Shown: positions 1 through 4,823 of the stretch, piece after piece
Numbering within the stretch: position 1 is the first letter of the stretch
Layout of the letters: the number at the start of each line of letters is the position of its first letter
IMG/VR virus record: IMGVR_UViG_2531839486_000010
DNA from: a virus
Taxonomy: Duplodnaviria > Heunggongvirae > Uroviricota > Caudoviricetes
Length of the DNA: 4,823 nt
Reading direction: 5' to 3' (one strand)
The notes under the pieces: generated by a model
Told to the model about the DNA's origin: nothing
Databases searched by the model: none
The model's input: the letters and a program-made list of their open reading frames with translations, nothing else
Position numbers and translations under genes: made by a program

Positions 1-2325
1 AAAAGCAGCCACATGCGCGGCGGTTAAAGTGATATCAGTAGAACCATCAAATGGAACACCGGATATTTTTCTTGCAGTCTGAAGTTTTGTAGCAGTTGCA
101 GCATTACCAGTGGTGTTCTGATTACCCGTAGTGTTTACACCTGGAAGGTTAATATTTGCAGAACCGTCGAAAACAACTCCACCGATAGATCTTGCCGTCT
201 GCAATTTCGTGGCTGTACTTGCATTACCATTCAATGAACCAGTTAATCCACCTGTAACAGACAACGGACCTGAAACTGTTCCTCCGGTTGTTGGCAGTGC
301 TCCAATATCTGATGGTGTAGGTTTCTGATGTGAGCTATACATCGTATAAACAACACCATAGGTAACGCTGGAAGGCTTACTCGCTGAATATGTTGGCGAG
401 GTATAAACAGAAACTGACGCATTTGCAGTACAATCCCAATGGATATTTACACTCGTCGCATAATTGCCAATCTCAACGTAAATATCATATGTATCGCCGG
501 ATGTGTTGATCCAGGCGAAATTCGTTAATCCGACGGCTGTACGCTTCCACAAAGCCCCGGTAATTCCTTTGGGGTTTCCATTGCCTGCTCGTAGAACCAG
601 TTCTGAAATGCCTGCCTGATGTGGGGAACCGACGTTGTAACCAGCGCCACCAATCAATGCGATGTAAACGATGGAACTCGCTTGTGGCATGGTAACCGTA
701 GCCAGTTTGAACCACCCAGCCCCGCCAGAGAAAGACATCGTTACTGAATTTAAAGTACCAATATCTTTCGGCGTTAATGTTATATCCGCAGTCAATGCTT
801 TTCCGTTAACTTTTCGGTTAGATGGCACCCTGCTATTCGCATTGTCATTGGCTGCTTTAACTGCTTTTGGCGTTGCGGCCAGCGATTCACTGGTGCTATC
901 AACAGCACTGCTAAGTTTCACAACACCTTTAGTTGTAAGGCTTGCGTCTTCCATCGCAACTGCACCGGCAATCTCTTCAGCACGATCAGCAGCAGCTTCC
1001 GCACGGGTCGCAGCGGATTCAGCAGCAGTTTTGCTCTGAGATGCTGCCGTCGCACTGCCTGCCGCCTCTGTTGCTTTCGTGGATGCCGTCGTGGCGCTGC
1101 CCTTCGCTGCTGACGCCTGTCTGGTCGCCTCATCTTTTGAAGCAGACGCAGATGATGCCGATGACGCTGCCGAACTGGCGGACGATGCGGCTGCCGTTTT
1201 TGAGGATTCTGCACGGGTTTCCGACGCTTTCGCATTCGTTTCGGATGTCTTCGCTGCGGAAGCAGACCTCGCTGCTGCGCTGGCCTGTACAGCGGCTTCG
1301 CCAGCCTTCGTTGTGGCTGTTGAAGCGGACGATGCAGCACTTTCTGCCGATTTTCCGGCGGCGGTGGCACTGGCTGAGGCCTGCCCGGCACTTGTTGACG
1401 CGGCACTGGCAGACGACGCAGCCGCTGTTTTTGAGCCTGCCGCAGCTGAGGCACTCTGTCCCGCTGCCGTTTCAGAAGACCTGGCGTTCGTCTCGGACGT
1501 CTTTGCCGCCTTCGCGGAATTTCCTGCCGCCGTTGCCGAGGAAGCGGCACTACTGGCGCTTGATGATGCGTTCGTTTCTGATGATTTCGCTGCCTCTTTT
1601 GAGGCCGCCGCATCCCGGGCTGAGGTGGCAGCTTCTGACGCCTTTGTGGTCGCGGCGGATGCAGAAGTGGCTGCTGATTGTTGTGACGCTGCCGCATTCG
1701 TTTCTGACGTTTTCGCGGCACTGGCACTGGTAGCTGCCGCGCTTTTTGAGGACTCTGCAGCGGCAGCACTTTTTGATGCTTCAGTGGCCTTTGTTGATGC
1801 CGTTCCTGCGCTGGAAGTCGCTGACTGAGCCGACGACGCGGCCTGTCCGGCTGACGTGCTGGCTGCGTGTGCTGAGCCTGCAGCATCAGTCGCATGGGTT
1901 GCCGCCTCACGGGCTGATGTGCTGGCATCACTGGCTGACTTCTTCGCGGCTGCCGTGTTCTGTGCCACCACGGACGCGTTACGCGCCACCTCTTCCACCA
2001 TCAGCTCAAAACGGCGCAGTGCCTCCGGACGGGCATCATCCTCAGTCATGGCACCGAGAAAATCATTCAGCGTACCGGGTCGGGAATCTTCATACACGGT
2101 AATGGTCCCGGCATGTGATGGCGGGAATCCCTCCACCAACAGAATAACGCTGTACTGACCGTACTCAACGTCCATGCTGTAACGCCCGGCTTCATCCGGA
2201 TTTTCTGAGGCAAGCGTGTTCACCACCACCGTGTTGCTGTTACGTTTTGCTTTCAGCTGGATTGTGCAGTTCTGTACCGGTTTTCCTGTGCCGTCTTTCA
2301 GTACACCTGAAATCTTTACTGCCAT
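1..2325 (-). CDS. stf: Side tail fiber protein Stf, 3'-partial: N-terminal 775 codons present, C-terminus beyond the window start
   Basis: Hand translation of the minus strand from ATG at 2325..2323 gives MAVKISGVLKDGTGKPVQNCTIQLKAKRNS..., which I recognise as the lambda Stf N-terminus. The frame is open for all 775 codons to position 1, ending ...GVPFDGSTDITLTAAHVAAF. SD-like GGGGTG lies 5 nt upstream of the ATG. Domain order: conserved N-terminal domain (aa 1-~122), Ala/Ser/Thr-rich shaft (aa ~123-450), conserved collar motif KGVVKLSSAVDSTSESLAATPKAVKAA (aa 466-492), non-repetitive domain (aa ~497-690), then two TATKLQTAR tail-fibre repeats. Not in the ORF track because no in-window stop. 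Confidence 0.9.
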   Translation of the reverse strand, partial: MAVKISGVLKDGTGKPVQNCTIQLKAKRNSNTVVVNTLASENPDEAGRYSMDVEYGQYSVILLVEGFPPSHAGTITVYEDSRPGTLNDFLGAMTEDDARPEALRRFELMVEEVARNASVVAQNTAAAKKSASDASTSAREAATHATDAAGSAHAASTSAGQAASSAQSATSSAGTASTKATEASKSAAAAESSKSAAATSASAAKTSETNAAASQQSAATSASAATTKASEAATSARDAAASKEAAKSSETNASSSASSAASSATAAGNSAKAAKTSETNARSSETAAGQSASAAAGSKTAAASSASAASTSAGQASASATAAGKSAESAASSASTATTKAGEAAVQASAAARSASAAKTSETNAKASETRAESSKTAAASSASSAASSASSASASKDEATRQASAAKGSATTASTKATEAAGSATAASQSKTAAESAATRAEAAADRAEEIAGAVAMEDASLTTKGVVKLSSAVDSTSESLAATPKAVKAANDNANSRVPSNRKVNGKALTADITLTPKDIGTLNSVTMSFSGGAGWFKLATVTMPQASSIVYIALIGGAGYNVGSPHQAGISELVLRAGNGNPKGITGALWKRTAVGLTNFAWINTSGDTYDIYVEIGNYATSVNIHWDCTANASVSVYTSPTYSASKPSSVTYGVVYTMYSSHQKPTPSDIGALPTTGGTVSGPLSVTGGLTGSLNGNASTATKLQTARSIGGVVFDGSANINLPGVNTTGNQNTTGNAATATKLQTARKISGVPFDGSTDITLTAAHVAAF
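25..231 (-). repeat. Two tandem ~40-aa phage tail fibre repeats (TATKLQTAR type) within distal stf
   Basis: Stf aa 699-727 (NGNASTATKLQTARSIGGVVFDGSANINL, nt 145..231) and aa 739-767 (TGNAATATKLQTARKISGVPFDGSTDITL, nt 25..111), about 120 nt apart. These resemble the repeat family found in T-even and lambdoid distal tail fibers. Confidence 0.75.
978..1959 (-). repeat. Low-complexity Ala/Ser/Thr-rich coding region (fiber shaft) of stf with recurring K(T/S)SETNA motifs
   Basis: Stf aa ~123-450 are dominated by A, S, T, K and E. The motif KTSETNA/KSSETNA recurs at nt 1693..1713, 1567..1587, 1483..1503 and 1231..1251, and the corresponding plus-strand DNA shows imperfect repeats of ttcgtttc(g/t)ga(c/t)g. 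GC is about 60-65% here. Confidence 0.8.
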
Positions 2326-2328
2326 ATT

Positions 2329-2334
2329 CACCCC
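2329..2334 (-). promoter_or_regulatory. Ribosome-binding site of stf
   Basis: Minus-strand GGGGUG(A) about 5 nt upstream of the stf ATG at 2325. Confidence 0.55.
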
Positions 2335-2336
2335 AC

Positions 2337-2363
2337 AAAAAAGCCCGCCTGAACCGGCGGGCT
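2337..2363 (-). terminator. Rho-independent terminator between lom and stf
   Basis: Minus-strand RNA reads AGCCCGCC-GGUUCA-GGCGGGCU followed by UUUUU: a perfect 8-bp GC-rich stem (plus-strand 2342-2349 pairing with 2356-2363), a 6-nt loop and a U-tract. It lies 26 nt after the lom stop and immediately upstream of the stf RBS. Confidence 0.8.
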
Positions 2364-2389
2364 GTCATAACACTGTGTTACCTGGCTAA

Positions 2390-2989
2390 TCAGAATTTAT
2401 AACCGACACCCACGATGAAACCGTCAGTGCGCCAGTCACCACTGCCGGAGCCTTCATAAGCAATATCAATGGCCACGGATTCGGTCGGGTTAAACTGCAC
2501 GCCAGCTCCCCACGCCAGAGAGGTGTTACTGTGGCGAGCGTCATCACTTCCGGTCAGCACGTCGTGCCTTTTTCCCTTGTTGTCAGTTACGCGGAGATAA
2601 TCCCCGGAAAAAGTCGACACACGGCTGTAAGCCACGCCTGCCATCGCATACGCGCTGAACCATTCATTCACGCGTACAGACGGCCCCGCCATCACGCTGA
2701 ACCAGCGGTTACGCACGGAATCTTCATGCCAGCGGGTATCGCTGTAACGGGTCAGCTGGCGATTCTTGTCTCCTGCATAGCTGAACGACGTCACCATCCC
2801 CAGTGTGTCCGTAAACTCATAACGGTATTTCACGTTAATCCCGTTCAGATCATCACTGCCGGGAACGTTCGTCCGGGCATGAAGATACCCCGCGCTCAGC
2901 GTGGACTGATGTTCAGACGCCCATGCAGGCGCACCGGATACGGCCAGACAAATGGCTGCGGACAAAATGGCGGCATAAAGTTTACGCAT
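2390..2989 (-). CDS. lom: Lom outer membrane protein (Ail/Lom/PagC/OmpX family beta-barrel), lysogenic conversion / virulence-associated
   Basis: 199-aa ORF starting MRKLYAAILSAAICLAVSGAPAWA (typical Sec signal peptide ending AWA) and ending ...GFIVGVGYKF (C-terminal aromatic residue typical of OM beta-barrels). Sequence and position between J and stf match lambda lom as I recall it. SD GAGAGG 5 nt upstream of ATG at 2989; TGA stop at 2390-2392. Confidence 0.93.
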   Translation of the reverse strand: MRKLYAAILSAAICLAVSGAPAWASEHQSTLSAGYLHARTNVPGSDDLNGINVKYRYEFTDTLGMVTSFSYAGDKNRQLTRYSDTRWHEDSVRNRWFSVMAGPSVRVNEWFSAYAMAGVAYSRVSTFSGDYLRVTDNKGKRHDVLTGSDDARHSNTSLAWGAGVQFNPTESVAIDIAYEGSGSGDWRTDGFIVGVGYKF

Positions 2990-3010: not shown

Positions 3011-3038
3011 AATAAAAAAGGCGTCATTTCTGACGCCC
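3011..3038 (-). terminator. Rho-independent terminator between J and lom
   Basis: Minus-strand RNA reads GGCGUCA-GAAA-UGACGCC followed by UUUUUUAUU: a 7-bp GC-rich stem (plus-strand 3020-3026 pairing with 3031-3037), a GAAA tetraloop and a U-tract. It starts 17 nt after the J stop. Confidence 0.75.

Positions 3039-3055: not shown

Positions 3056-4823
<1,768 letters not shown>

Follow-up and report, generated by a model that had tools for sequence, protein, structure and literature searches.

Gene order of the window and anatomy of the side tail fibre

The window, meaning the whole 4,823-nt stretch analysed here, is the complete 4,823-bp draft contig APYD01000116.1, and its source assembly contains no further flank. 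It carries, on the minus strand like every feature located below, the 3' part of gene J, encoding the tail tip attachment protein (3056..4819, 5'-truncated at the contig boundary), lom, encoding an Ail/Lom outer-membrane protein (2390..2989; PF06316, E = 5.7e-120), and stf, encoding the side tail fibre (1..2325, 3'-truncated at the other boundary). The J fragment matches the Pfam families Ig_J, Ig_J_second, Phage_Tail_Tip and Ig_GpJ_C and shares 81% amino acid identity with lambda J 546–1131. ORFs and Pfam matches give the order J–lom–stf on one strand, which recurs in lambda, Rac, phi458 and SW071618; a lambdoid E. coli prophage is represented here by its J(3')-lom-stf(5') end. The gap between lom and stf contains a terminator-like hairpin (2342..2363), with an 8-bp stem that includes seven GC pairs and is followed by a T-run. 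A promoter scan near lom and stf detected none, and an Rfam scan of the window gave no match at gathering thresholds. Long opposite-strand ORFs in the shaft region were rejected as genes, being artefacts of GC-rich periodic sequence. An invertase-driven switch inside the window was also rejected, as the 4.8 kb contain neither an invertase gene nor an inverted segment.

The stf frame opens at ATG 2325 and runs stop-free to nt 1, giving 775 codons; because the contig boundary falls inside the gene, its reading frame breaks off at codon 775. The N-terminal domain of Stf (aa 1–134, 1924..2325) matches Pfam PF08400 phage_tail_N (E = 3.8e-71) over profile positions 1–134 of 134 and is 97.8% identical to Rac stfR at the nucleotide level. 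An Ala/Ser/Thr-rich shaft of 49 heptads (aa 120–462, 940..1968) keeps a 7-residue period without breaks, with an Ala autocorrelation of 0.34–0.47 at lags 7, 14, 21 and 28, a spectral power at period 3.5 of 9.3 (shuffle maximum, 1.65) and DNA repeat spacings that are in most cases multiples of 21 nt. This heptad shaft is probably a coiled coil. Its Ala/Ser-rich composition and its closure with the conserved KG(I/V)VxLSS...ATPKAVK motif, seen in the lambda/Rac alignments and the heptad periodicity, are a signature of lambda-type Stf. The description of the first ~465 residues as lambda-like, made in a first-pass annotation of this DNA, holds in part. Residues 1–303 are collinear with Ur-lambda Stf (megablast, 86.8% nucleotide identity over 909 nt) and residues 409–490 align to lambda Stf 304–387, but the alignments give no lambda counterpart for residues 304–408 (1102..1416), a shaft segment of 105 aa, or exactly 15 heptads, and identity falls towards the motif. 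This segment is found in Rac StfR, PhiR29_1, phi458 and Cyrano.

The conserved junction, or collar, motif KGVVKLSSAVDSTSESLAATPKAVKAA, which the first-pass annotation had placed correctly (aa 466–492, 850..930), contains residues that are invariant across six fibres and is common to lambda Stf. It is followed by NDNANSR (aa 493–499, 829..849), the final residues still alignable to lambda or Rac, in which R499 pairs with lambda R393. From ~codon 430 to ~740, a lower-GC internal cassette stands in for the middle of a lambda/Rac-type fibre; it consists of its own diverged collar copy, a predicted jelly-roll knob of ~150 aa and two tail-fibre repeats.

Base composition and the 5' breakpoint

The hand counts of GC that had pointed to a module of different composition were all exact (46.7% at 1–60, 38.3% at 421–480, 40.0% at 721–780 and 65.0% at 1381–1440), and by segment GC is 0.61 at nt 931–1923 and 0.452 at nt 1–849. 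Such a shift could have arisen with no horizontal exchange, simply from the contrast between Ala/Ser-rich shaft codons (GCN, TCN) and ordinary globular sequence, and the drop in GC2 from 0.80 in the Ala/Ser/Thr-rich shaft to 0.54 distally does explain much of the raw GC gap. GC3, however, also declines, from 0.59 in the N-terminal domain and 0.48 in the shaft to 0.33–0.35 distally. A single change-point fit places a fall from 0.52 to 0.33 after codon 426 (nt ~1047), within a wide 2-log-likelihood support interval of codons 411–630, and its likelihood-ratio statistic of 28.6 was reached in 0 of 500 permutations. The difference persists in Cochran–Mantel–Haenszel tests stratified by amino acid, whether the shaft (p = 6e-4) or all upstream sequence (p = 4.5e-7) is compared with the rest, and GC3 declines within individual amino acids (Ala, 0.57 to 0.33; Gly, 0.55 to 0.25; Lys, 0.39 to 0.12). 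Composition is thus not uniform once amino-acid bias is accounted for, and the codon-position and stratified tests led us to reject this bias alone as the cause of the GC shift. Given that the GC3 change-point also falls where nucleotide identity to both Rac and PhiR29_1 is lost, an origin without exchange is very improbable. The low GC3 of the cassette would be in the direction expected of T-even-type phages.

Nucleotide comparison with Rac stfR and PhiR29_1 located the 5' breakpoint. Along stf, the Rac stfR match starts at 97.8% nucleotide identity and goes through 95% and 91% before falling to ~65% from query nt ~1291 (window nt ~1035); around this position, identity to Rac stfR/PhiR29_1 drops from 0.91/0.89 (query nt 1226–1290) to 0.66/0.64 (query nt 1291–1395). 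Identity loss and the GC3 change-point together place the cassette 5' breakpoint within the heptad shaft, at codons ~426–431 (1035..1047). The crossover positions are defined solely against Rac, PhiR29_1 and lambda, and among the comparators used we identified no donor fibre carrying the cassette in its original context. The idea of a module swap at a conserved junction stands as regards mosaicism relative to lambda and Rac, the differing composition and the role of the collar, but the break in composition and identity falls ~100–115 nt upstream of the motif, at nt ~1035–1047 and not at 930.

The collar motif itself is 72% identical to those of Rac and PhiR29_1 at the nucleotide level, and the copy present here is a diverged version imported together with the cassette. 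The junction in the collar region is genuine. The nucleotide match to PhiR29_1 stops at query nt 1487. As the first-pass annotation had noted, resemblance to lambda Stf is lost past the collar, the protein similarity ceasing right after ATPKAVK, and in the variant P0004 a Rac-type collar is fused straight to NSRVPSNRK of the cassette. In lambda Stf, R393 and S528 are the two points bounding where the cassette family departs from lambda, and both have served as fusion points for functional lambda STF chimeras (PMC11338833), R393 in a functional lambda–P2 STF chimera (PMC11338833). One of the natural junctions mapped here thus coincides with a position already used to build lambda STF chimeras.

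The join could also have been produced during assembly, as a chimeric contig of stf pieces from two prophages in one genome, considering that the contig is only 4,823 bp long, that both of its ends lie in repeat-prone phage genes and that the homologues in databases are for the most part 'partial' proteins located at contig boundaries. Against this, the join recurs collinearly in 632 complete E. coli genome records, which cover at least 80% of the window with up to 97.7% identity, as well as in the isolated phage phi458, and the cassette is found in 618 of 5,426 complete E. coli genomes. We rejected a misassembled chimera, which is barely credible given the presence of the join in closed genomes and in phi458. 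In the complete E. coli genomes the cassette has 744 matching places, 143 of them on plasmids, including records of ~108–115 kb, and it is also present in SSU5-like phage-plasmids.

The internal cassette and the missing tip

The knob (aa ~525–672, 310..753) is predicted to be an all-beta jelly-roll sandwich, in a monomer model whose underlying alignment is shallow (16 sequences) and whose mean pLDDT is 62. The beta-sandwich fold of the model is lectin/CBM-like and weakly resembles galectins and carbohydrate-binding modules, and Foldseek matched it to predicted gp37 structures (Shigella phage JK38 gp37, E = 6.6e-14, at moderate model confidence). Tail-fibre repeat 1, GNASTATKLQTARSIGGVVFDGSANINL (aa 700–727, 145..228), shares ~60% amino acid identity with T-even gp37 repeats. 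Tail-fibre repeat 2, GNAATATKLQTARKISGVPFDGSTDITL (aa 740–767, 25..108), contains the 3' junction, at which the sequence again resembles Rac stfR and phi458 departs. Rac stfR has no real homology over query nt 1501–2190, and its identity climbs back to 0.68–0.77 from query nt ~2221, that is, in the last ~100 nt of the window, while the phi458 nucleotide match stops at query nt 2279, with a different tip beyond. The final codons, TAAHVAAF (aa 768–775, 1..24), are common to Rac StfR and the 1,075-aa relatives. In the distal 283 residues (aa 493–775), Pfam searches detected no family even at E <= 1, so that PF03406 (Phage_fiber_2), a precomputed match on near-identical relatives, was not recovered here, and phmmer searches against PDB sequences returned nothing at E <= 1. 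The cassette matches PHROG tail-fibre profiles at internal positions only.

The nearest full-length relative is the Stf of E. coli SW071618 (WP_074439502.1, 1,075 aa, annotated as 'prophage tail fiber N-terminal domain-containing protein'), with 99.1% amino acid identity over the 775 aa. J-lom-stf synteny, shaft, collar variant, knob and repeats are as in the window. Past the window boundary, SW071618 Stf continues for 300 residues with an ARRATG module and a lambda-like tip carrying every HxH box, followed by tfa and hypothetical genes, with no invertase. Pfam matches in this tip region are Collar (PF07484), Phage_fiber (PF03335) and gp37_C (PF12604). The HxH tip followed by tfa is a lambda-type Stf feature, and an HxH tip is also seen in P0034. 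The Escherichia phage phi458 (OP434518.1) shares the window's synteny, shaft, collar variant, knob and repeats, whereas after aa ~760 it has an unrelated tip, with IS1 and a Pin-type invertase downstream. The window stops short of the point at which SW071618 and phi458 diverge, and its last eight residues are of the SW071618 type. Same-cassette relatives show at least three different C-termini, and some of these relatives are deletion derivatives. The homologues returned by a protein search were mostly shorter than 500 aa, many of them 'partial' at contig boundaries.

These relatives bear on the original reading of nt 1–930 as a distal receptor-binding module swapped at the collar, with a receptor specificity unlike that of lambda. 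This reading accommodates the end of lambda similarity after ATPKAVK, the lower GC, the lectin/CBM-like fold of the knob with its weak galectin and carbohydrate-binding-module similarity, and the absence of HxH histidine boxes, which we verified across the 775 aa. However, 'distal' is a misnomer, since the contig boundary cuts the ORF; 99%-identical relatives extend 300 aa further into a lambda-like HxH tip and tfa; the window's final codons agree with that continuation; and cassette homologues in other fibres are always internal (PHROG profiles, T2 gp37). We consider a distal module improbable, and no change in receptor specificity can be inferred; the 99.1%-identical relative has every HxH box. 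The absence of the receptor-binding tip is due solely to the contig stopping inside the gene, and both tip and tfa lie beyond it. Most likely, to judge from the relatives, as the 3' end of this copy is outside the window, its Stf continues with the ARRATG... module and a lambda/T4-gp37-type HxH tip; the closing TAAHVAAF agrees with an SW071618-type continuation and with Rac StfR, not with the phi458 tip.

As for the knob, its likeliest role is structural, as a bulge in the shaft or a trimer clamp lengthening the fibre, and it might bind glycans. That it forms a lateral glycan-binding (lectin/CBM-like) site rather than mere shaft filler seems to us unlikely. If it did, cassette fibres could bind both through the HxH tip and through a second site that contacts sugar side-on. 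Shuffling of the cassette between lambdoid prophages, SSU5-like phage-plasmids and T-even phages would then adjust host range with no need for the tip to change.

Origin of the mosaic and comparison with known fibres

Stf in this window is thus very probably a mosaic in which a lambda/Rac-type N-terminus and shaft lead into an imported low-GC cassette and then return to Rac-type sequence, with the tip beyond the contig. The cassette was probably installed by homologous or homeologous recombination between the fibre genes of different phages, with crossovers presumably located in conserved stretches bordering variable modules. The 5' crossover would lie among the shaft heptads, a short way upstream of the collar, and the 3' crossover in the repeat GNAxTATKLQTxR...FDGSxDITLTAAHVAAF. 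Between lambda and Rac or Qin, exchange across stf/tfa proceeds by relaxed homologous recombination (PMC3945230). Exchangeability of the modules is apparent in phi458, with a window-type fibre to aa ~760 and another tip, in Cyrano and CMS-2020a, with another N-terminus, and in P0004, with its Rac-type collar.

The stf gene is nothing out of the ordinary: as a side-tail-fibre allele of E. coli prophages it is already catalogued, and it exemplifies textbook tail-fibre mosaicism; descriptions of mosaic tail-fibre genes swapped at conserved motifs go back to around 1990. It is collinear over 2,279 nt with phi458 (97.8% nucleotide identity), and RefSeq prophage proteins are likewise collinear with it. 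Such full-length collinear identity to a single known Stf, which the first-pass annotation would have taken as evidence against a mosaic, identifies the mosaic as an established allele and does not show mosaicism to be absent. Annotated as it already is in hundreds of genomes and an isolated phage, the allele carries little weight as a discovery. Its value lies in the mapping of natural junctions, at the heptad shaft and collar on the 5' side and at a fibre repeat on the 3' side, and in a caution: where a contig boundary falls within a fibre gene rich in repeats, a receptor-binding domain can look as if it were 'missing'.

Among known fibres, Rac prophage StfR (E. coli K-12 b1372, 1,120 aa) is collinear and 91–98% identical at the nucleotide level over codons 1–430, including the 105 aa missing from lambda. 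From codons ~431 to ~740 it is homeologous in the collar (~72% nucleotide identity) and thereafter unrelated, having its own, different middle module of ~270 aa. Similarity returns in the second fibre repeat (...DITLTAAHVAAF) and is followed in Rac by an ARRATD module and an HxH tip. Ur-lambda Stf (774 aa), which corresponds to orf-401 and orf-314 of lambda PaPa once the missing C is put back, is collinear over the N-terminal domain and shaft to aa 303 but lacks 15 of the window's shaft heptads, and its aa ~394–528 are replaced here by the ~370-aa cassette and ARRATG module, with boundaries that match the fusion points R393 and S528. In the full-length relatives the tip is lambda-like from ~GAPIPWPSD on, HxH boxes included. 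The SSU5-like phage-plasmid fibres (Escherichia phage Cyrano CYRAN_21, 1,341 aa; CMS-2020a) are 95–97% identical at the nucleotide level from shaft codon ~180 through the cassette, whereas their N-terminal attachment domain is unrelated, they carry extra repeats and modules, and they end in a different, non-HxH tip. Finally, T-even gp37, the distal subunit of the long tail fibre, shares with the window only the knob and the repeats (~60% identical by tblastn), the remaining gp37 being unrelated. By tblastn the knob is 42–50% identical to an internal gp37 segment (aa ~822–924 of 1,341 in T2 gp37, X04442.1), with E values down to ~1e-33 for T-even gp37 records. The virion context also differs, gp37 belonging to the long fibre of a myovirus and the Stf described here to the side fibre of a siphovirus.

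Gene layout and contig ends

By ORF and Pfam analysis, the minus strand of the window carries all three genes: the tail-tip gene J, represented by its 3' 587 codons (nt 3056-4819), lom (nt 2390-2989) and the side tail fibre gene stf, which runs from its ATG at 2325 to nt 1 as 775 codons with no stop. An exact-protein match of Lom showed the window to be the entire draft contig APYD01000116.1 (assembly GCA_000357025.2, 4,823 bp); both ends are therefore assembly breaks within phage genes, and stf is cut off by assembly, not biology. Position 1 lies inside a shared tail-fibre repeat and nt 4823 inside J; both recur in other lambdoid prophages, which probably explains why assembly broke off at these points. 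Among database relatives of the imported, lower-GC stf segment described below, the cassette, many are also 'partial' proteins located at the ends of contigs. Of 5,426 complete E. coli genomes, 5,080 match the window in part; in 634, at least 80% of it is covered, with identity up to 97.7%, and these matches are always annotated as J, Lom and 'prophage tail fiber N-terminal domain-containing protein'.

Terminator-like GC hairpins with a T-run were observed at 2342-2363 (-), directly after lom and immediately upstream of the ribosome-binding site of stf, and at 3019-3038 (-), directly after J, two in all and so no excess over the 1.2 expected from shuffling. Long ORFs in other frames or on the opposite strand of the shaft at 918-1931 (-), 942-1733 (+) and 1079-1828 (+) (337, 263 and 249 aa), and a 57-aa ORF spanning the stf start at 2216-2389 (+), have low-complexity translations, rich in Arg/Pro/Gln or in Ala/Asp. 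Lambda orf206b and phi458 Orf44/Orf45 are annotated counterparts. The ORFs look like side effects of a periodic, GC-rich coding sequence rather than genes.

Extent and boundaries of the cassette

For comparison, Ur-lambda Stf (774 aa) was reconstructed from J02459 by adding back a missing C, which lambda PaPa stf reportedly lacks, as Hendrix and Duda are said to have described in 1992. The PaPa stf frameshift is mentioned in PMC3945230. Residues 1-303 of the window Stf are collinear with Ur-lambda Stf (the stf megablast match to lambda is 86.8% over 909 nt), and residues 409-490, collar motif included, align to lambda 304-387; past ATPKAVK, the end of the motif, the two proteins are unrelated. 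The first-pass description of the first ~465 aa as lambda-like is thus right in outline only. The 105-aa block at 304-408 has no lambda counterpart. It is present in Rac StfR, PhiR29_1, phi458 and Cyrano, making lambda the odd one out.

The Ala/Ser/Thr shaft, 940-1968 (-), aa 120-462, keeps a 7-residue register unbroken over 49 heptads (rows such as ASTSAGQ and AASSAQS), a pattern suggestive of an extended coiled coil. The 105 aa that lambda lacks amount to exactly 15 heptads, and the register also contains the 5' recombination breakpoint.

The collar motif KGVVKLSSAVDSTSESLAATPKAVKAA was confirmed at nt 850-930 (aa 466-492), and the four earlier hand counts of GC proved exact (46.7, 38.3, 40.0 and 65.0%). 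By segment, GC drops from 0.61 in the shaft to 0.45 over nt 1-849. GC2 (0.80 vs 0.54) explains much of this drop, although composition remains non-uniform once amino-acid bias is removed. GC3 is 0.59 in the N-domain, 0.48 in the shaft and 0.33-0.35 thereafter. A one-change-point likelihood scan placed the GC3 break, 0.52 to 0.33, after codon 426 (nt ~1047), with a wide 2-log-likelihood support interval (codons 411-630) and a statistic reached by none of 500 permutations; an amino-acid-stratified test gave p = 6e-4 for shaft versus rest and 4.5e-7 for all upstream versus rest.

Numbered along stf, nucleotide identity to Rac stfR is 97.8% over query nt 1-402, 95.0% over 403-1225 and 90.8% over 1226-1290, then 65.7% over 1291-1395 and 71.6% in the collar motif; there is no real homology over 1501-2190, and from ~2221 identity is 68-77% in 60-nt windows, the last ~30 nt of stf in the window being identical. 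Relative to the comparators used, the 5' break lies at window nt ~1035 (codon ~431), inside the shaft, and coincides with the GC3 change-point. In other alleles the crossover does fall at the collar, earlier proposed as the junction: the DNA match to PhiR29_1 stops at query nt 1487, and the related database protein P0004 joins a Rac-type collar straight to NSRVPSNRK. Here, however, the break is ~100 nt upstream, and the window collar is therefore a homeologous copy imported with the cassette. The second fibre repeat (nt 25-108) forms the 3' junction, and phi458 departs from the alignment there too (query nt 2279).

The cassette is thus flanked by two conserved stretches, with abrupt changes in identity and GC3, and fibres that differ in N-terminus and tip carry the same cassette. 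It would have been installed by homologous or homeologous recombination at the two stretches. Lambda x Rac/Qin recombination across stf/tfa, by relaxed homologous recombination, has been shown experimentally (PMC3945230).

Relatives, predicted fold and distribution of the cassette

PHROG profiles match the cassette strongly, always at internal profile positions (e.g. 490-766 of 1,385). Tblastn against phages found relatives of three kinds. The SSU5-like phage-plasmids CMS-2020a and Cyrano carry the cassette in nearly identical form; aa ~525-672 are 42-50% identical to internal parts of T-even gp37 (in T2 gp37, aa ~822-924 of 1,341), Felix-O1-like fibres and SSU5 fibres; and the two GNAxTATKLQTAR...FDGS repeats are ~60% identical to those of gp37. 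Together with the low GC3, the gp37, Felix-O1 and SSU5 relatives would be consistent with a phage lineage of lower GC as the source.

The domain at aa ~525-672, a predicted jelly-roll, is read as a shaft knob; its structure model is monomeric and of moderate confidence. In WceF, each chain separately forms a jelly-roll sandwich after the triple beta-helix, the sole element of that size with eight-stranded two-sheet architecture (PMC7949094). The structural match of the model, reported without aligned residues, is probably to this element. A glycan-binding role of the knob is possible.

The 690-nt cassette core occurs in 618 of 5,426 complete E. coli genomes at 744 places (601 chromosomal, 143 plasmid); in 183 records identity is 99% or more. 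In Cyrano (4469-8494), shaft and cassette lie inside a 1,341-aa tail fibre; SSU5-like phage-plasmids carry ParA and a toxin-antitoxin pair near the tail fibre. The sharing of shaft and cassette with phage-plasmids, and the plasmid share of the places, imply that integrated lambdoid prophages and phages borne on plasmids have recently exchanged sequence.

The missing tip and engineered chimeras

None of the 775 residues forms an HxH box, as first reported. The best full-length relative, the 1,075-aa Stf of E. coli SW071618 (99.1% aa identity over all 775 codons), continues after ...TAAHVAAF into an ARRATGSYAD... module and a tip that, from ~PVGAPIPWPSD, aligns with lambda 540-774, holds all the HxH boxes and matches Pfam Collar (PF07484), Phage_fiber (PF03335) and gp37_C (PF12604); tfa follows. 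Rac StfR and the partial proteins P0002 and P0034, 100% identical to the window over the overlap, continue likewise. The cassette is therefore internal, and calling it a distal module was misleading. Other C-termini also occur behind it, so we infer the tip of the window copy from relatives: it would be of the HxH type, consistent with its last eight residues. The Cyrano fibre has additional repeats and ends differently, and phi458 has an unrelated tip.

In phi458, stf is followed (6874-9169) by a 'tail fiber' fragment in opposite orientation, IS1 (insA/insB) and a DNA invertase of the Pin type. The arrangement resembles a locus for alternative tips that is invertible or has decayed; the SW071618 relative lacks it. 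P0004, P0005 and P0027 are naturally rearranged versions of this fibre: P0004 has two collar motifs in tandem, P0005 fuses Stf and Tfa in frame directly after TAAHVA, and in P0027 a deletion brings PSDIG directly up to the last HxH boxes. They suggest that recombination or decay is frequent at repeated motifs.

The stf allele, the mosaic phenomenon and even the engineering junction were all known before. What is useful here is a correction: the absence of HxH boxes, earlier taken to indicate a receptor specificity different from lambda's, is a truncation artefact, and no such change can be read from the window.

The receptor-binding end of J, its last ~165 codons (3056-3555 (-)), is also swapped, so this prophage probably does not use lambda J specificity. 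Up to lambda residue ~965, J is almost completely identical to lambda J; over the final ~165 residues identity drops sharply, and GC there is 0.48 vs 0.567 in the rest of J. The drop in identity is at the same point as position 964, where gpJ chimeras were engineered (PMC11338833). In Stf, the cassette replaces lambda residues ~394-528, and its boundaries match R393 and S528, the fusion points of functional lambda STF chimeras (PMC11338833).
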